Shown: positions 9,448 to 40,850, numbered from the stretch's first letter. The stretch is DNA of 42,039 bases from a virus (IMGVR_UViG_2737471829_000004); one strand, 5' to 3'. Notes: a model not told the origin generated them from the letters alone. A program made the numbers and translations.

Positions 9448-10005
9448 ATGATCATGAGTCGCACATCCCTGATTAAATTAATCCATGTCGCCCGTCGTGA
9501 TCTACAACTCGACGACGATACTTACCGCGCTTTTCTGATGCAGAAAACGGGCAAAATCAGTTGCCGCGAGCTGACGGTAACGCAACTGGAACAGGTGCTC
9601 GATGCCATGAAAGAACGCGGCTTTAAGAAGCTGAATAAACATCCACGTCGCCGCTTTAAGGGGCATGTCACGCCCCGCGAGAAGGTATACAAAGTCTGGC
9701 AGCAGATGGCAGAAGACGGTTTTATTACCGATGGCGGTGATGTGGCGCTGGATAAATATGTTCAGCGCCTGACGGCGAAACGTAATGGCGGACAGGGTGT
9801 TTCCACGCTGGCGTGGTGTCATGGCGACACCCTGTTGATTGTTCTCGAAACTCTCAAGCAGTGGCATATCCGCTGTATTCGTGAAGCCTTTTCCCGTCAC
9901 GGGCTTCCGTTGCCGGTCAGTCCGTCCGGGCGTGAACTGCGCGGCTATGATGCCATGACGGCGGCTTATGCCCATGCCAGAAAGACACGGAGGATGGCAC
10001 AATGA
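9448..10005 (+). CDS. gemA: GemA-like early protein
   Basis: Placed directly upstream of mor as in Mu; family recognised by position and size. Start chosen at an internal ATG; the track ORF starts at 9373. Confidence 0.55.
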   Translation: MIMSRTSLIKLIHVARRDLQLDDDTYRAFLMQKTGKISCRELTVTQLEQVLDAMKERGFKKLNKHPRRRFKGHVTPREKVYKVWQQMAEDGFITDGGDVALDKYVQRLTAKRNGGQGVSTLAWCHGDTLLIVLETLKQWHIRCIREAFSRHGLPLPVSPSGRELRGYDAMTAAYAHARKTRRMAQ

Positions 10006-10391
10006 CGGAAGATTTATTTGGTGATTTGCAGGATGACACCATCCTGGCACATCTTGACAATCCCGCAGAGGATACGTCACGCTTTCCGGCACTGCTGGCG
10101 GAGCTGAACGATTTACTGCGCGGGGAATTGTCCCGGCTGGGTGTTGATCCTGCCCATTCACTGGAGATTGTAGTGGCTATCTGTAAGCATCTGGGCGGCG
10201 GTCAGGTCTACATTCCACGCGGTCAGGTTCTGGACTCGCTGATTCGGGATTTGCGTATCTGGAATGATTTTAACGGTCGCAACGTCAGCGAACTGACCAC
10301 CCGTTATGGTGTCACTTTCAATACGGTTTACAAGGCCATTCGCCGGATGCGACGGCTGAAATACCGCCAGTACCAGCCCTCACTTCTGTAA
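10002..10391 (+). CDS. mor: Mor, middle-operon transcription activator
   Basis: 129 aa; C-terminal GGGQVYIP..FNGRN..EL motif is shared with the C-like protein downstream. Followed by a terminator. Confidence 0.85.
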   Translation: MTEDLFGDLQDDTILAHLDNPAEDTSRFPALLAELNDLLRGELSRLGVDPAHSLEIVVAICKHLGGGQVYIPRGQVLDSLIRDLRIWNDFNGRNVSELTTRYGVTFNTVYKAIRRMRRLKYRQYQPSLL

Positions 10392-10810: not shown

Positions 10811-11233
10811 ATGCAGCATGATTTATTTGAACACGATCCGGCAATTCGCCAGTTAATCGGACATATTGATAACATCCCGGCCCCGGAACTGGAATCACGC
10901 TGGCCCCGTTCGGTGGTTGATCTGATTGATGTTCTGGAAAACGAACTGAAACGCCAGAACGTCAGCAATCCCCGTGAACTTGCCCGTAAACAGGCCGTTG
11001 CCCTGTCCTGTTTTCTGGGGGGGCGGCAGTTTTACATCCCCTGCGGCGATACTATCCTGACCGCGTTACGCGACGATTTGCTTTACTGCCAGTTCAATGG
11101 TCGTAACATGGAAGAACTGCGTCGCCAGTACCGCCTGTCCCAGCCGCAGATCTACCAGATTATTGCCCGCCAGAGAAAGCTGCATACACGACGTCATCAG
11201 CCTGATCTGTTCTCACCTGAAAGCCAGAAATAA
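10811..11233 (+). CDS. C: C, late transcription activator (Mor/C family)
   Basis: 140 aa; paralog of the mor product (GGRQFYIP..FNGRNMEEL..Y..I.R.R.L); position before the lysis and head genes. Confidence 0.85.
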   Translation: MQHDLFEHDPAIRQLIGHIDNIPAPELESRWPRSVVDLIDVLENELKRQNVSNPRELARKQAVALSCFLGGRQFYIPCGDTILTALRDDLLYCQFNGRNMEELRRQYRLSQPQIYQIIARQRKLHTRRHQPDLFSPESQK

Positions 11234-32306: not shown

Positions 32307-33661
32307 TGTTTTATATTGATAACGACAGCGGCGTAACCGTCATGCCGCCCGTATCCGCCCAGCGTAGTGCTATCGTTCGCTGGTTTTCAGAAGGTGACGG
32401 GAATAATGTTATCACATGGCCCGGCATGGACTGGTTTAATATTGTTCAGGCGGAGTTATTAAACACGCTGGAAGAAGCTGGTATTCAACCGGATAAAACA
32501 AAATTAAACCAGCTTGCACTGTCCATTAAAGCCATTATGAGCAATAACGCGCTGCTGATAAAAAATAACCTCAGCGAAATTAAAACTGCCGGGGCATCAG
32601 CACAGCGTACAGCACGTGAAAATCTGGATATCTATGATGCCAGCCTGAACAAAAAAGGACTCGTTCAGCTAACCAGTGCCACTGACAGCCCCAGTGAAAC
32701 GCTGGCAGCCACCGCAAAAGCGGTGAAAATTGCGATGGATAATGCCAATGCCCGTCTGGCAAAAGACCGGAACGGAGCAGATATTCCCAATAAGCCGCTG
32801 TTTATCCAAAACCTCGGTTTACAGGAAACGGTAAACAAGGCTGGTAACGCTGTTCAGCGTTCTGGCGATACAATGACCGGAAAACTGAATCTACCACAGA
32901 CATCTGCATTCGGCGTTAATACCGATAATGCACTGGGTGGTAATTCCATTACTCTCGGAGATAACGACACCGGTATTAAACAGGGCGGCGATGGTGTCCT
33001 TTTATTCTATTTAAATGGACAACTGATATTTGGGCTTCAACCCACATCCGCTGATTTTTATAAGCGAGTTGCCTACATTCATCAGGGAGTAGCTCCAGAT
33101 GGGAGTGGCGCATTTGCAGACCAGTTAAATAATGCCACCGCGCCTTTTGTTCAGACGCAGTTTGCCTGGAATCCCACTCCTGGCGGTCATTACGTACCGA
33201 TAGCTAAGGGCTTGTCCATTCGCAATGGACAGGGGTATCCAGGTGCGGTCAGCTTTGGTTATTTACTAACTGAACAAATGGGATTTCCCATACCATGCAT
33301 TCATATGCGTGGAGATTACGGAGCTGATGCTTTGTGGCAGTTTAACCCGAACGATAAATCTTTTATTTCACCGGGTGCTCTTGTTGCGGGTGGCATCCGT
33401 TATAACACCGATGGAAATATATTTGGCGGGTGTTGGGGTTCAAATTTAGCTGATTATCTCAATAGCACATATGTAAGAGACATTCGACTTGGTAGCGCAG
33501 AATCAATATCAGCATGGCGAGGCCCTGGTTACTGGGATACTTCTGGATATGTTCTGACCGCAGCCGGAAACAGCAACACCGATGAATTTATTGATACATT
33601 AACCAGAAGGCCTATTCAGAAGTTGATTGGTGGGACATATTATAACGTTGTGAGTATTTGA
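32306..33661 (+). CDS. S: Tail fibre protein S (constant part fused to the variable part in the current G orientation)
   Basis: 451 aa; the reading frame runs through the left gix site at about codon 165; the variable part shares motifs with S' (NALGG.SI.LGDNDTG.KQ.GDG). Confidence 0.85.
32801..32826. repeat. gix recombination site (left), inside S
   Basis: ttatccaaaacctcggtttacaggaa; its inverted partner at about 35635-35660 is identical in 25 of 26 positions. Confidence 0.85.
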
Positions 33662-33662
33662 C

Positions 33663-34190
33663 ATGATGCATTTAAAAAACATTAAAGCAGGGAACCCAAA
33701 AACACCTGAACAATACCAGTTAACCAAAAAAGCTGGAGTGGTCTGGCTTTATACTGAAGATGGTAAAAACTGGTACGAAGAACAAAAAAACTTTCAACCA
33801 GATACTATAAAAATTGCATACGATAAAAATAATGTGATTGTTACCGTAAGCAAAGATGTTTCAACGATTAACCCGGAAGGTTTAAGTGTTGTTGAAGTAT
33901 CCGATATTACGGCAAATCGTCGCGCAGACAATAACGGAAACTGGATGTTTCTGGATGGTAAAGTAGTAAAGCGGGAATATACAAAACAGGAGCTGCAACA
34001 GCAGGCAGAGTTACAAAAATCCGCTTTGCTTTCCGAAGCGGAGTCTGTGATTCAACCGCTGGAACGTGCTGTCAGGCTGAATATGGCAACTAATGAGGAA
34101 CGCGCACGACTGGAGTCATGGGAACGCTACAGTGTTCTGGTCAGCCGTGTGGATACGGCAAATCCTGAATGGCCACAAAAGCCTGAATAA
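33663..34190 (+). CDS. U: Tail fibre assembly protein U
   Basis: 175 aa beginning [23 protein letters not shown], paralogous to U' on the opposite strand. Confidence 0.85.
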
Positions 34191-34218
34191 AAATTAAGGC
34201 CCGATAGCGGGCCTTGTC

Positions 34219-34752
34219 TCATTCTGGTTGTTCCGGGAATGTTACAGGAAGAACAGAGGTATCTGTGGCATCAACCTGCTGCATGTATAACATCCAGTTA
34301 ATGAGTCTTTGCCTGTCTGAATCGCTGATAATTCCCAGCGCAAGCTGTGTTTGCCAGCACTGCGTTTCCTCTCTGGCCTGTCGCAGCAAAATCTGTTTCT
34401 GAATTTCAGCCAGTTGACGTAGTTCTTCATCAGTCCGGGGGCGTTTCATGACCTTGCCATCCTGAAACACCCAGTCACCGAGAATATCGGCCCGGCGATT
34501 CGCTGTCGTGTCGGGTAATTCGACAACGCTCATTCCTTCCGGGTTAATAGACGACACATCTTTTTCAATATAGCGAATGATACCTCTGTCATCGTAAGCG
34601 ATTTTTAGTGTGTCTGCCTGAAAGGCTTTTTGTGCCTCATACCAGTTCTGACCATCTTCAGCGTAAAGCCAGATAACACCATGTCTCTTTGTTAACTCAT
34701 ACTGTTCCAGTGTTTTAGCATTACCCGCTTTTATGTTCTTTAAGTGCATCAT
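34219..34752 (-). CDS. U': Alternative tail fibre assembly protein U'
   Basis: 177 aa beginning [25 protein letters not shown], paralog of U in inverted orientation. Confidence 0.85.
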   Translation of the reverse strand: MMHLKNIKAGNAKTLEQYELTKRHGVIWLYAEDGQNWYEAQKAFQADTLKIAYDDRGIIRYIEKDVSSINPEGMSVVELPDTTANRRADILGDWVFQDGKVMKRPRTDEELRQLAEIQKQILLRQAREETQCWQTQLALGIISDSDRQRLINWMLYMQQVDATDTSVLPVTFPEQPE

Positions 34753-34753
34753 A

Positions 34754-35634
34754 TTAAACGCTCGCTACATTATACCAGGTGCCATTTATATACTTTTGAA
34801 CGGGTCTGTAATAAACGCCCGCTATATTATCGGCAGAGTTGGACCCTGTATCCTGAACATTAATACCAGACAATACATGACCTGACGGGCACTTGAAATT
34901 CCATGTTTGCCAGTTGTTCACACCATGATATTGCTGTGAACCAAGACGAACATCTTTTACGTATCGGGAATCAAAGTTACTCCAGTTACTTGGTTGTATG
35001 TGACCGTTTACAGCAAATATCACCGAATTATCTGTATTTCGCTGACTATAGAAATGCCAGCCTGAATCATCACCAAGCTCTGCAACAGTTGGTCTTGATG
35101 AAGTGCCCCATAAATTAAAACCTACGTTTTTCGTGGAGTTGTTGGAGCTGGATAGCGTGAATTTTTTACCATCCCCGGCCTGAACGTTTTTAAAAGCAAT
35201 AGCAACTCCATTCTGAAAGCGGAATACTCGCTGACTATTAGCGTAAACATCCAGAATACCGTCTCCATTCTGTTTAAATCCGGTATCATTATCACCAAGA
35301 ACAATAGAGCTACCACCTAACGCATTCGTCGTACCAACTCCAAGGCTGCCATTAATGACGGCATTAACAAGAATATTTAGTGCATCCCATTTCAGCGTCA
35401 TCAGGTCTTTTGTTGTGGTGCTTTGTTTGCTTCTCCATTTGAAATATTCATTGCCGTTGTCGCCTGTTTCAAACCACATGTATGAATCAGTGTCACCATC
35501 GGCATCATTTTTAAATCCAATCTTCGCCCAGTCAGTATTTCGAATCCAGGCAAGGATTGAGTCATTTTCAAAAGTAAGCCCACCGGACAAAGTATCGCCA
35601 TTTTTTTGCACGGCATTACCAGCCCTGTTTACCG
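34754..35634 (-). CDS. S': Alternative tail fibre variable part S' (no independent start; expressed only after G inversion)
   Basis: Open frame from the right gix site to 34754; upstream sequence ..[20 protein letters not shown].. parallels the S junction ..[20 protein letters not shown]... Confidence 0.8.
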
Positions 35635-35660
35635 TTTCCTGTAAACCGAGGTTTTAGATA
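35635..35660. repeat. gix recombination site (right)
   Basis: ttcctgtaaaccgaggttttagataa, inverted copy of the left gix. Confidence 0.85.
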
Positions 35661-35715
35661 ATGGCCGTTTCCGGCCTGCATGGCATGATTTGCGATTTTG
35701 GACGGGAGATTCAGC

Positions 35716-36297
35716 GTGCTGATTGGCTATGTAAGGGTATCAACAAATGACCAGAATACAGACCTGCAACGAAACGCTCTTGTTTGTGCAGGATGTGAAC
35801 AAATATTTGAAGATAAATTAAGCGGAACAAGGACAGACAGACCTGGATTAAAGCGCGCTTTAAAGCGTCTTCAAAAAGGTGACACACTGGTTGTCTGGAA
35901 ACTGGATCGCCTCGGGCGAAGCATGAAACATCTGATTTCTCTCGTCGGAGAACTAAGGGAGCGAGGGATTAATTTTCGCAGCCTTACTGACAGTATTGAT
36001 ACGTCATCCCCAATGGGGCGTTTTTTCTTCCACGTTATGGGTGCCCTGGCTGAAATGGAACGAGAACTAATCATCGAGCGAACGATGGCTGGACTTGCTG
36101 CCGCCAGAAATAAAGGCCGTATTGGTGGGCGACCACCTAAACTAACCAAAGCGGAATGGGAGCAGGCCGGGCGTTTATTAGCACAAGGAATCCCCCGCAA
36201 GCAGGTTGCATTGATCTACGATGTGGCCCTGTCAACTCTGTATAAAAAACACCCCGCGAAACGAGCGCATATAGAAAACGACGATCGAATCAATTAA
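35716..36297 (+). CDS. gin: Gin serine DNA invertase
   Basis: 193 aa from a GTG start (MLIGYVRVSTNDQ...); resolvase/invertase catalytic N-terminus with serine and C-terminal HTH. The track ORF starts 18 nt upstream at a TTG. Confidence 0.9.
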   Translation: MLIGYVRVSTNDQNTDLQRNALVCAGCEQIFEDKLSGTRTDRPGLKRALKRLQKGDTLVVWKLDRLGRSMKHLISLVGELRERGINFRSLTDSIDTSSPMGRFFFHVMGALAEMERELIIERTMAGLAAARNKGRIGGRPPKLTKAEWEQAGRLLAQGIPRKQVALIYDVALSTLYKKHPAKRAHIENDDRIN

Positions 36298-36320
36298 ATC
36301 GATCGGTAATACAGATCGAT
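36280..36320. promoter_or_regulatory. GATC cluster upstream of com-mom (methylation-dependent control region)
   Basis: Three GATC sites within about 40 bp (acGATCgaat, aaatcGATCgg, caGATCgatt) just upstream of the com-mom operon. Confidence 0.5.
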
Positions 36321-36391
36321 TATGCCCCAATAACCACACTCAACCCATGATGTTTTTTAAGATAGTGGCGAATTGATGCAAAGGAGGTGAG

Positions 36392-36580
36392 ATGAAATCA
36401 ATTCGCTGTAAAAACTGCAACAAACTGTTATTTAAGGCGGATTCCTTTGATCACATTGAAATCAGGTGTCCGCGTTGCAAACGTCACATCATAATGCTGA
36501 ATGCCTGCGAGCATCCCACGGAGAAACATTGTGGGAAAAGAGAAAAAATCACGCATTCTGACGAAACCGTGCGTTATTGA
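36392..36580 (+). CDS. com: Com, zinc-finger translational activator of mom
   Basis: 62 aa with CxxC...CxxC (CKNCNK...CPRCKRH); overlaps the 5' end of mom. Confidence 0.85.
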
Positions 36581-37247
36581 GTATGAAGGCCAGATTGTTG
36601 GCTATGGTTCAAAGGAGCTGCGCGTTGAAACCATATCCTGCTGGCTGGCCCGCACAATTATTCAGACAAAGCACTATTCCCGCCGTTTTGTGAATAACTC
36701 TTACCTCCACCTGGGAGTGTTCAGCGGACGCGATCTGGTTGGCGTTCTCCAGTGGGGATATGCCCTTAACCCCAACTCAGGTCGTCGTGTCGTGCTTGAA
36801 ACGGATAACCGGGGCTATATGGAGTTGAATCGCATGTGGCTACACGACGACATGCCCCGCAACTCTGAATCACGGGCCATCAGCTACGCGCTGAAAGTTA
36901 TCAGATTACTGTATCCGTCAGTGGAGTGGGTTCAGTCCTTTGCTGACGAACGCTGCGGACGCGCAGGCGTTGTGTATCAGGCGTCGAATTTTGATTTTAT
37001 TGGCAGCCATGAAAGCACGTTCTACGAGCTGGATGGTGAGTGGTATCACGAGATAACGATGAACGCAATTAAGCGCGGTGGACAACGAGGCGTGTATTTA
37101 CGGGCTAATAAAGAGCGTGCCGTGGTGCACAAATTTAATCAGTATCGCTACATCAGGTTCCTGAACAAGCGAGCAAGGAAGCGACTAAATACTAATCTAT
37201 TCAGGATCCAACCATATCCAAAATCAACTCTGACTAGTATCAAATAA
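36501..37247 (+). CDS. mom: Mom, DNA adenine modification enzyme (anti-restriction)
   Basis: Sequence from [33 protein letters not shown] onward recognised as Mu Mom; last gene before the right end. The true start codon is uncertain. Confidence 0.85.
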
Positions 37248-37306
37248 CTTATTTATTCCTGCTGAAAAGCAGCTCCTCATGGCATAAAATTGTTCACGTG
37301 AGTTTA

Positions 37307-37344
37307 AAATGACCAAATGGCAGTACAGTATTTGGTCATTTTAT
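37307..37344 (+). terminator. Hairpin downstream of mom
   Basis: 12-bp inverted repeat aaaatgaccaaa...tttggtcatttt with a large loop, followed by T residues. Confidence 0.45.
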
Positions 37345-37376
37345 GGGGTGAATTTTAAAGTCAAAACGATGGTAAG

Positions 37377-37718
37377 GTGCATATGAAAAAAATACTCATA
37401 GCAGTACTACTTTGCTTTGGTGTTCTTTCTGCTAATCAGGCAATAGCGGCTGTTACCTTAAGCGGTAAGTATCCTGCATGCATATCTGCTAATGAATTCG
37501 AGCGATTAAGCTCAATTTTGCAACACGAAGATCAAGAGGCGTTTGAAGAGATCTTTAAGACATCATGCTTTATGCCTAAAAAGGGGGTTAAAGTTGATAA
37601 AGTTGTTTCTATGGGGTGGACCAGTGGAGTTGCGCATGTCAAAGTTTATGTAAAAGGCAATCTTTACGATCTTTGGACTAACACCGAAAATCTTCAGTCC
37701 GAGAAGGCTGGTAAATAA
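37377..37718 (+). CDS. Small secreted protein of unknown function (cargo/moron candidate)
   Basis: 113 aa; signal peptide MKKILIAVLLCFGVLSANQAIA-AV; RBS aaggtg 5 nt upstream; locally AT-rich; lies inside the prophage between mom and attR. Confidence 0.5.
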   Translation: MHMKKILIAVLLCFGVLSANQAIAAVTLSGKYPACISANEFERLSSILQHEDQEAFEEIFKTSCFMPKKGVKVDKVVSMGWTSGVAHVKVYVKGNLYDLWTNTENLQSEKAGK

Positions 37719-37899
37719 CGCTGTAATCAACGTGTAATCACATCTCCTACCAGCTATCGCCTGATAAAGTTAGGTGATAGCTATTTCAATACTCTCTAGT
37801 TTCACTGAAAGCACGAAACTTAATACCTCCATTCCAGATTGCTTAATAATCGAGCATTTTTATCTTGAATGTTTTTGCGCGCTTTATCAGCCATACCCT

Positions 37900-38020
37900 A
37901 AGTGATCCCCATGTAATGAATAAAAAGCAGTAATTAATACTGCTGTTTCATTTGAAGCGCGAAAGCTAAAGTTTTCGCATTTATCGTGAAACGCTTTCGC
38001 GTTTTTCGTGCGCCGCTTCA
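37900..38020. promoter_or_regulatory. attR region with transposase-binding end sites (R1-R3-like)
   Basis: tgaagcgcgaaagctaaag, cgtgaaacgctttcgcg and the terminal ..tttttcgtgcgccgcttca match the recalled Mu right end. Confidence 0.7.
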
Positions 38021-38025
38021 CATGC
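38021..38025. repeat. Target-site duplication, right copy (CATGC)
   Basis: Identical to 919-923. Confidence 0.8.
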
Positions 38026-40850
38026 TCTTCCGTCACCCGGCCGCAGTTATCCAGAACATAAAGATATGATTCACCCTGCGGGTTAATGACTTCTGTCAGT
38101 TGCAGCGTGTCTTTATCGTAGCGGTACTGCCAGCGGTGGCCTTCACCGTCCGTTCGCGCCACCGGCAAATCGAACGGGCCGTACTCCATTGTCCAGACAA
38201 CACCATTGCCGTCCGTGTACGCCAGCAGGTTGCCGTGGCGGTCATAGCGAAATCCTTCCGCGCCGGTTCCAGCACGTTCAATGCCGCTCAGTTTATGGTG
38301 CTGCTGCCACTGTAACCGCACTGACTGACCGCCGGGGCCGCGCATCTTCACCGGCAGGTCGTGACCGCTGTATTCGGTGTGGTGTTCACGGCCCATCACG
38401 TCGGTGAGTGTTTCCGGCCGGTTGTGGTGGTCGTACTCTATGCCCAGACGCCGTTCATCCTGGCGGAATATTCCCGACAACAGCCCCTGAGCGGTGTACG
38501 CCAGCCGGGTCTCTTCGCCCTGTGGCGACACCAGGCTTACCGGCAGGCCGCGTTCATCGCACAGCTGTGTCCACGTCTGCCCGGCAGGGTCGGTGATGTT
38601 GCTGAACAGGCCGTGCTCATCATAGCGGTACAACCACTCCGCGCCGTCTGCCGCCGTGTAACGGCTTAACTGACCGTGTGCGGCGTTGTATTCAAACTTC
38701 TCCACCCGCCCGGCAGGGGAGTGGCGGGCCAGCAGGTGATGGAATTCATCCCATTCATACGTGGTGGTGCTGCCGTCCGGCGCTTCTTCCCGCAGAATAT
38801 TGCCGTCAGGATCATAGTAATAACGGTGAATGCCCTTGCCGTCCGTCACGGTGGTGCAGCCGTCACCATAGTCCAGCGTGGCGTTGTAATAGCCCTCCGC
38901 CCCGGTGACATTCACGCACCGGCCCTGTGCATCGTAGGTGAAACGGCTCCACGTCTGGTCGTTATCGGACCAGCGGATGATCCGGTCCGCAGCGTCGTAC
39001 TCATAAAACAGGTGGTAGTCCAGCCGCGCATCCGCTTCTGTCAGCCGCCCCCGCGCATCCTGTTCGTAGGTCGCCAGCGTCTGTATGCCGTTATCCGTGC
39101 GGTGAATGGCTTTCAGGTAGCCGCTGGCATGGTACGTCAGTTTAAGCCGGATCCCGTCGGTGTGACTGACACCCGTGATCCGGTACTGGCTGTCGCGCTC
39201 AAACGTGATGCGGTTGCTGGCGGTGTCACTCATCCCGCCCAGCATATACATCCGGTCACCGGGGCTGTGTGCCAGGCGGTCATCGCTGGTATCGTCAGTC
39301 ACCGGGTGGCGCAGACGCATTCCCGGAAAGGCGTCATAAAAGAAGCGGCTGCTCAGGGCATCACGGTCGAACAGCTCCAGGTAATCATCACGGCGGCGCA
39401 GGATGTACTGGGCGTGATACGGGTTAACCGCCGTATCACTTTCACCGTCGAAGGCGAAGTTCAGCGTGGCTCCCAGGCTGATGATATCCACCCGGTTTCC
39501 CTGTTCACGCACCCAGGCGTATTCGCTCCAGGAGTCGCTCCAGCCCACGCCGGTCAGGCCATGCAGCGGCAGTACAGAACTGTGGAAACGGGTGAAGGAG
39601 AGGGGGAGTGTCTGGCCCAGGGTGAAGTCGGTACGTTCGTCGCAGTACGCGCCGGTTACCGGATCGACAGGATCTGTTACCCATCTGATGACTTTATTGG
39701 CAATACTTTTTAACGACTTACCTGTTTTCCCCAGCAACGCGCCGAGCTTTGCCCCCAGCAGCTTCCCGCTTTTCCCCAGCAGGTTCCCCAGTTTGCCGAG
39801 TCTCGCCAGATTCTTCAGTTTTCCCAGCAGTCCCGCTGGCGGCAGAAGATAGCTGGCTATCGTTATTCCCCCCAGGATCATTCTCTGCCACGGCGGGAAC
39901 TCCGGCTGGATATCCAGATAGGTCACCTGCTCACCGCTAATAAAGACGTCCGGCGAACCTCCCACGATTGCTGCGCTGCACTCCAGTTTGTCGCCCTGGC
40001 GTGCGGCAGGCTGATTGTTGATAAAGACGTTGCTGCTGCCCTGGGCTATCCTCGGTGGTTTGTTCTCCTTGTCGCAGAGCGCCGTGTCCTCACCGGCTTC
40101 CGGGAAATCCACATCTTTTTTGATTTCGCCACGCCCGCCCACCATGGTGGCAAACTCCATTAATACCGGACCGGCGGGAAACAGAAGCGATGCGCCGGCG
40201 CTGACGCGATCCATAAAACCGGCATTGCTGTCCGTCAGGGTGATAACAGCGTTCCCCCAGGCCTTCGCCAGTGGTACTGCTTTTTCCGCTGCCGATTCAA
40301 GCAGGTCAGTGGCAATATCACCCCATGAGGGTTCCCCCTGTGGGACTTCAGGTATTGCTCCAGGTGGGGGAGGAGGGGGAAGGGTGACGGCGGCCCTGGC
40401 AGCGGGCTTTCCGTTAATTTTTACGTTTTCAGAACCGGTATTGATGGCGCCGTCCGTGTCACAAAAACTGTTTATCCATGACTCAAGCTGGTTCTGTTTC
40501 TCCTCCACATAATCACTCGCCTTATAGCTGGCATACATCAGCGCAGGCACCAGAACCAGCGCATAAGGGCCGGTGGCACAGGCGGCCATAATCAGGCAAC
40601 CTTCTGCGATGGTCACTATCGCCCCCAGCACGGCCCCTGCCAGCGCCCCCAAAAAACTCTTGTGCTGAATTTCATCGCCCAGCCTGGCGGCGGGGGGGCC
40701 AGACTTTTTTGATGCCAGCATCTGTGCAATGGCTTTGTCGTTGGCTGCCCGTTTCATCTGGCTGGCGACCATCGCCTGCTGTGACAGCATTCGCATTGCC
40801 AGCGTACCGCCTGCGGTCGCTCCCTGTGGCCCGCCTGGTCCTTCACTCAT
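38021..40850 (-). CDS. prePAAR-TM-PAAR-Rhs T6SS effector, 5' portion (943 codons), interrupted by the prophage
   Basis: N-terminal AARLGDEIQH (prePAAR motif AARxxDxxxH), hydrophobic helices (FLGALAGAVLGAIVTIAEGCLIMAACATGPYALVLVPALMY), PAAR-like motifs (VKINGKPAARAAV, VFINNQPAARQGD) and many YD repeats. The track ORF continues to 37887 by reading about 44 codons into the Mu right end. Confidence 0.8.

Follow-up and report, generated by a model that had tools for sequence, protein, structure and literature searches.

The com-mom operon of phage Mu (AF083977 / NC_000929, 35693–36602) is among the most thoroughly dissected phage regulatory units. The 78-bp tin7 fragment of its promoter, Pmom, runs from −58 to +20 (PMC3378877; sequence printed in PMC4461284), and the binding site of the late transcription activator C lies upstream of the −35 element and overlaps it (PMC4461284). 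According to PMC3378877 and PMC7549136 (citing Sun and Hattman 1996), Dam methylation of the mom GATC region prevents the binding of OxyR there. Additional control of mom comes from Fis and from a competing, divergent promoter (PMC3378877). Translation is controlled by Com, for which SELEX gave the motif CC(N)2-3GAG, presented in a hexaloop hairpin beside a translation inhibition structure whose stem includes the Mom GUG start codon (PMC6483171). Mom moves glycine from Gly-tRNA(Gly) onto adenine N6, and the adduct rearranges to 6-NcmdA (PMC13219725).

Two other systems share the Dam/OxyR component. In E. coli agn43 (Ag43) and in the P22 gtr operon, OxyR is likewise blocked when clustered GATC sites within its binding site are Dam-methylated (PMC2909390). 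Both agn43 and gtr phase-vary heritably, and phase variation of mom is treated as an open question in the same paper (PMC2909390). Unlike agn43 and gtr, the mom switch gates a late lytic gene that needs C and Com as well. Among phages, D108 and PhiR68_1 (Muvirus) carry the same operon as Mu with a non-Mu mom tail and an accessory gene, gene 56 ('D108-specific protein'), before the right end.

We analysed a stretch of 42,039 nucleotides from IMGVR_UViG_2737471829_000004 (here called the window), which holds the com-mom operon of a Mu-type transposable prophage. From its sequence the operon should work as it does in Mu, a reading to which we give a probability of about 0.95 and which none of our results contradicts. 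The operon is a textbook Mu operon and is ordinary: C, the control region, Mom and Com are all Mu-like and lie inside an essentially complete Mu genome, and nothing in the module is therefore new. The newer item is an accessory cassette downstream of mom, which is only mildly new and stands outside the com-mom finding. The value of the analysis lies mostly in correct annotation. An E. coli strain with an apparently complete Mu-type prophage, presumably able to hypermodify its DNA, does bear on restriction-based typing or cloning when induced cultures are the source. The features are listed in Table 1.

Table 1. Features of the com-mom locus and of the surrounding prophage (positions counted from the first nucleotide of the window)
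Feature	Position	Strand	Basis and remarks
Complete Mu-type prophage	924–38020		37,097 bp; collinear by BLAST with Mu positions 1 to 36717
C, late transcription activator needed for Pmom	10811–11233	+	98.6% amino acid identity to Mu C
gin, G-segment invertase	35716–36297	+	193/193 residues as in Mu Gin; Pfam Resolvase and HTH_7
Dam/OxyR control region with three GATC sites	36280–36317	.	Identical to Mu
C-binding site (presumed dyad TTAT-N6-ATAA)	36320–36333	+	Identical to Mu; abuts and overlaps the −35 element
Pmom	36333–36370	+	Published 78-bp tin7 fragment mapped onto identical sequence
com, zinc-ribbon translational activator of mom	36392–36580	+	62/62 residues identical to Mu Com
Com mRNA target hairpin UGC-CUGCGA-GCA	36502–36513	+	Predicted; 3-bp stem, hexaloop
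Translation inhibition hairpin UCCCACGG / UUGUGGGA	36514–36536	+	Predicted; 8-bp
mom, adenine-N6 hypermodification enzyme	36531–37247	+	Pfam Mom; aligns to Mu Mom
Accessory cassette, ~640 bp	37248–37886	+	Absent from Mu and D108
Cassette ORF, 111 aa	37383–37718	+	N-terminus signal-peptide-like
Mu right end (attR)	37887–38020	+	98.5% identical to Mu 36584–36717

The earlier note on this DNA was silent on the setting of the module, which is an essentially complete Mu genome. The prophage is flanked by a perfect 5-bp target duplication (CATGC, 919–923 and 38021–38025), and its terminal 18 bases (TTTTCGTGCGCCGCTTCA, 38003–38020) match the Mu right end exactly. With Mu-type ends, MuA and MuB, the 5-bp duplication and Mu gene order, the element belongs to Muvirus. 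By tblastn, 48 of the 53 Mu proteins found a match, in the same order as in Mu, and 46 of these matches are full-length and ungapped; gp12 aligned to residue 166 of 176, and the five Mu proteins that found no tblastn match are small and have no function assigned. All essential Mu genes are intact and no gene is truncated. On the right, the flanking sequence shows 100% identity to E. coli chromosomes, in which it is annotated as an RHS-repeat protein beside VgrG; the insertion has therefore disrupted a type VI secretion Rhs gene, split on the minus strand between 1–923 and 38021 onward. A 987-residue minus-strand ORF (37887–40850) was rejected as a real gene, being the interrupted Rhs frame accidentally open into the Mu right end.

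Two segments of the prophage are not Mu's. The immunity region (1266–2194) encodes a repressor and a Ner protein with 46% and 50% identity to their Mu counterparts, compared with 94–100% over the rest of the genome, and from this divergence the phage should be heteroimmune to Mu. The invertible G segment (32850–35624) is also unlike that of Mu: S was matched over residues 1–209 of 504 with two gaps, U is 80% identical, and part of the segment is inverted relative to Mu (35360–35661 against Mu 32255–31954). These differences suggest that the tail-fibre host-range modules are not the same as in Mu.

The window and Mu share the gene order gin-com-mom-right end, and between com-mom and the right end a differing mom 3′ end and the cassette are the sole departures from Mu. 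A megablast search of 36200–37400 against 50,697 phage records returned Mu, D108, SfMu, PhiR68_1 and Yersinia Mu-like phages at 96–99% identity, with PhiR68_1 the top phage match (98.7% over 1058 bp). In an alignment with three phages, 361 bp (36260–36620) are 100% identical to Mu and PhiR68_1, and D108 differs by four base changes. This stretch takes in the end of gin, the three GATC sites, the C-binding site, Pmom, com, the Com RNA target and the first 90 nucleotides of mom. The claim of the earlier note that the full control architecture is kept was thus borne out: every element it named is present, in a control region indistinguishable from that of Mu. Its account of control by Dam, C and Com, taken from Mu, also stands, and is refined here by OxyR as the repressor that Dam methylation keeps off the GATC region, by Fis and the divergent promoter, and by the chemistry of Mom.

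Since the sequence is identical to that of Mu, the published promoter coordinates transfer directly. Pmom has a −35 element ACCACA (36333–38) and a −10 element TAAGAT (36358–63) separated by a 19-bp spacer, a T6 run (36353–58) and a start near 36370; the Mu record annotates a late promoter at the equivalent of 36317–36383. A generic sigma-70 scan found no promoter at Pmom, which is expected of an activator-dependent promoter and carries no information. The dyad TTAT-N6-ATAA is taken to be the C site. C itself (138 of 140 residues identical to Mu C) acts in trans from a gene about 25 kb upstream, and Mor, which turns on C, is encoded at 10002–10391 (128 of 129 residues, 99.2% identity to Mu). 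The activator-dependent promoter, the C site and the C gene are thus found in one genome.

The com gene has a Shine-Dalgarno sequence AAGGAGG at 36381–87. Its translation, 62 residues, contains cysteines C6, C9, C26 and C29 in a CxxC...CxxC arrangement and matches Pfam PF10122 Zn_ribbon_Com (E 2.7e-9) and PHROG 13819 'gpCom control of modification' (E 4.6e-45); a PDB search with Com found no solved chain. A Com zinc-finger ORF overlapping the start of mom had been proposed from the DNA alone, and the overlap is indeed there, at 50 nt for the GTG start of mom or 80 nt for the ATG start.

RNA folding of 36480–36560 predicted two hairpins. The upstream one carries the Com target motif CC-UGC-GAG (36504–36511). 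The downstream one, present in the minimum-energy and centroid folds alike, encloses the mom Shine-Dalgarno sequence GGAG (36520–23) and the GUG start (36531–33). In the published model these two hairpins are the one bound by Com and the translation inhibition structure. Their folding energies do not beat those of shuffled sequence (z −0.6 and −0.02), so the RNA model draws its support from identity to Mu and from conservation. Compensatory changes in the stems were not found across the relatives described below, in which the stems are simply invariant, and covariation is neither for nor against the hairpin structure. An Rfam scan of 36200–38050 gave two sub-threshold chance hits only (IS102 and CcsR1, E about 0.5–0.7) and no curated family covering the Com target. 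A Com target and a start-hiding hairpin are accordingly assigned here from prediction, Mu identity and conservation, and binding of Com to this target is predicted.

The mom frame starts at GTG 36531 (238 residues) or ATG 36501 (248 residues) and contains no frameshift and no internal stop, which answers the check on the frame that had been proposed for it. All 231 residues of Mu Mom align and 228 are identical (98.7%). The three substitutions (K232N, K235R and V236I, ATG numbering) are conservative and fall in the last ten Mu codons, and a 7-residue C-terminal tail (STLTSIK) extends beyond Mu Mom. The protein matches Pfam PF25680 (E 2.4e-75; 253 bits, cutoff 27), a PHROG annotated 'Mom-like DNA modification protein', and PDB 8bv8, the solved Mu Mom structure (E 2e-157). 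NCBIfam had no model above cutoff for Mom, Com or C of this prophage; RefSeq does name these proteins. In the numbering of a 2026 structural paper (PMC13219725, counted from the ATG), Mom keeps all ten of the residues listed there: Y28, W48, H58, Y59, R111, S124, D149, R151, Y159 and W181. By its sequence it is a Mom-family protein of GNAT fold, in which the residues that are needed for activity (R111, S124, D149, R151 and others) are in place.

Conservation of the control elements was examined upstream of mom in 47 related loci gathered from E. coli genomes, GTDB genomes and IMG/VR; the search with Mom yielded three loci from genome contigs versus 44 from the viral collection. Among complete E. 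coli genomes, 98 of 5,426 have a com-mom match; roughly half of these are at least 95% identical, upstream region included, and roughly half are 80–90% identical and match only from com onward. An overlapping CxxC...CxxC ORF is present in 47/47 relatives. The motif CC-N3-GAG with a hairpin stem occurs in 48 of 51 loci (the relatives, the window and the Mu reference), with invariant CC and GAG and eight forms of N3 among the 48 matching loci. The segment GAAUGCC-N3-GAGCAUCCCAC...GUGGG is nearly invariant, while the hairpin loop takes several forms; one relative (L019) has a C-to-U change in the stem that retains a G-U pair. In the GATC region the spacing is 18 + 13 bp in 25/47 relatives, 21/47 have the 18-bp pair only, and one has 31 + 13 bp. 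An alignment of eleven diverse representatives shows the GATC block and the half-site ATA(A/C)C, which is kept in the relatives, as conserved islands amid divergent upstream sequence.

This pattern is evidence of selection on the GATC pair, the Com motif and the start-codon hairpin. The conserved core comprises the 18-bp GATC pair, CC-N3-GAG and the start-codon hairpin; the third GATC and the Mu-type promoter fall outside it. The distinction corresponds to a second class of com-mom modules, found in prophages of E. coli and other enterobacteria (e.g. RM13745, KFu019 and IMG/VR loci). Modules of this class share with the window the overlapping com/mom (about 88% DNA identity), CC-N3-GAG, the inhibition hairpin and an upstream CGATCG-N12-CGATCG. 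They differ in the loss of the third GATC (21/47 loci), in a promoter region that is unrelated and has no T6 run, and in the absence of gin upstream. Examples are L006, L007 and 19 IMG/VR loci (e.g. L034 and L042).

In the window, the three GATC sites (36283–36286, 36301–36304 and 36314–36317; sequence search) span 35 bp, in agreement with the earlier note, which had placed them within about 40 bp. The note also put them immediately upstream of the module. They are upstream, but not in the immediate neighbourhood of com: they lie 75–109 bp ahead of the com ATG and precede the promoter, occupying about −87 to −53 relative to the transcription start inferred here (individual sites at about −87, −69 and −56). 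The first lies inside the final gin codons (GAC GAT CGA ATC AAT TAA). The first two are CGATCG (PvuI sites) spaced by 18 bp, equal to the 18-bp PvuI fragment in a Mu Pmom clone (PMC3378877).

The three sites form by far the tightest GATC triple in the window, the second tightest spanning 87 bp. Strong significance had been expected of the cluster statistics. With 88 GATC sites scattered randomly over 42 kb, 15% of trials produced a triple no wider than 35 bp, and at the GATC density given by dinucleotide content 44% did. Taken alone, the cluster is only mildly unusual and within chance (about 15%), and the case is made from identity and conservation instead. The same 15% is the point in favour of reading the three sites as a coincidental cluster that plays no part in the regulation of this element. 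That reading is nevertheless extremely improbable. GATC is the most depleted 4-bp palindrome in the prophage (924–38020; 74 observed where trinucleotide frequencies predict 170, a ratio of 0.43), and the triple upstream of mom therefore stands out locally. The 18-bp GATC pair is kept in 46/47 relatives even though the neighbouring sequence is divergent, and such conservation is better support for function than the cluster statistic. The region 36280–36316 also scores 13/20 against the OxyR consensus used here, tied for best in the window, a match that is weakly consistent with an OxyR site. We hold the cluster to be real because it is identical to the characterised Mu element and is conserved in relatives. 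Both dam and oxyR are core E. coli genes located outside the window. A second 13/20 match to this OxyR consensus, at 37770–37806 in the cassette and downstream of its ORF, is probably due to chance.

It might also be supposed that com-mom is a silent relic that yields no modification, either because the prophage is defective or because the altered C-terminus of Mom, with its three substitutions and seven extra residues due to the downstream cassette, inactivates the enzyme. The last ten mom codons are unlike those of Mu, the frame is seven codons longer, and inducibility is not inferable from Mu, given an immunity region so unlike its counterpart there. We regard this as very unlikely on several grounds. 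The catalytic and structural residues tested in PMC13219725 are all kept, and the annotated Mom proteins of D108 and PhiR68_1 likewise end in non-Mu C-terminal tails. The nucleotide changes that set mom apart from its Mu counterpart are overwhelmingly synonymous (20 of 23). The intact target duplication and the lack of any truncated gene speak against a defective prophage, and the presence of mom plus cassette at six or more chromosomal sites implies a phage that is still transposing.

For a functional Mu-type operon, the sequence of events can be drawn from the Mu literature (PMC3378877, PMC4461284, PMC6483171, PMC7549136 and PMC13219725), with the window supplying the elements and the genes. 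The operon would be silent in the lysogen and in early lytic growth, since Pmom, with poor −35 and −10 elements 19 bp apart, would be unable to recruit RNA polymerase alone. Host OxyR would repress Pmom whenever the three GATC sites were unmethylated or hemimethylated, and Fis would add to the repression. Late in lytic growth Mor would switch on C, and C bound to TTAT-N6-ATAA would untwist the promoter, recruit polymerase and assist promoter escape, on condition that Dam-methylated GATC sites kept OxyR off. Com would be the first product of the transcript, on which the mom ribosome-binding site and GUG would be locked in the hairpin; binding of Com to the adjacent CC-UGC-GAG loop would open this hairpin and allow translation of mom. 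Mom would then transfer glycine from Gly-tRNA(Gly) to the N6 of adenines in double-stranded DNA, giving 6-NcmdA, and packaged phage DNA would be shielded from many restriction enzymes.

Downstream of mom the window departs from Mu: the match to Mu ends at 37216 and resumes at 37887. The 3′ end of mom is like that of D108 and PhiR68_1, yet divergent enough for the seven extra codons. The accessory gene of D108 and PhiR68_1 is unrelated to the cassette, and the alignment with these phages breaks down past the mom stop. The cassette had no DNA match among the 50,697 phage records, and its ORF had no match in Pfam, PHROG or NCBIfam. It occurs in one of the 5,426 complete E. coli genomes (2014C-3075), in a prophage that lies in another gene, beside ddpX. 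Public assemblies contain Mu-like prophages at six different chromosomal sites in which the identical 111-residue protein is encoded immediately behind mom, and we conclude that this variant of the phage is widespread and evidently moves. Homologues of the cassette protein with 50–70% identity are found in Enterobacter, Kosakonia, Citrobacter and Klebsiella.

A perfect inverted repeat of 14 nt (TAAAATGACCAAAT / ATTTGGTCATTTTA; loop of 11 nt; 37305–37343) lies between the stop codon of mom and the cassette ORF, where it could either terminate the mom transcript or serve the cassette gene as an operator. A sigma-70-like match (37262–37290) is located just upstream of it. We propose, as a doubtful suggestion, that the 111-residue protein is expressed in one of two ways. 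It may be made by read-through from Pmom, under Dam, OxyR and C, as a late-expressed accessory function coupled to DNA modification. Or it may be a lysogen-expressed 'moron', with the sigma-70-like match as its own promoter and the inverted repeat as its operator. Either version, if true, would make the junction between mom and the right end a swappable cargo slot, as D108 gene 56 likewise suggests, and this slot holds differing cargo genes in different Mu-like phages. Mu has no cassette, and in the window the cassette is followed by a remnant copy of the 3′ end of a Mu-type mom (CAGCCATACCCTAAGTGA, 37888–37905), which suggests that recombination inside the end of mom brought the cassette in.
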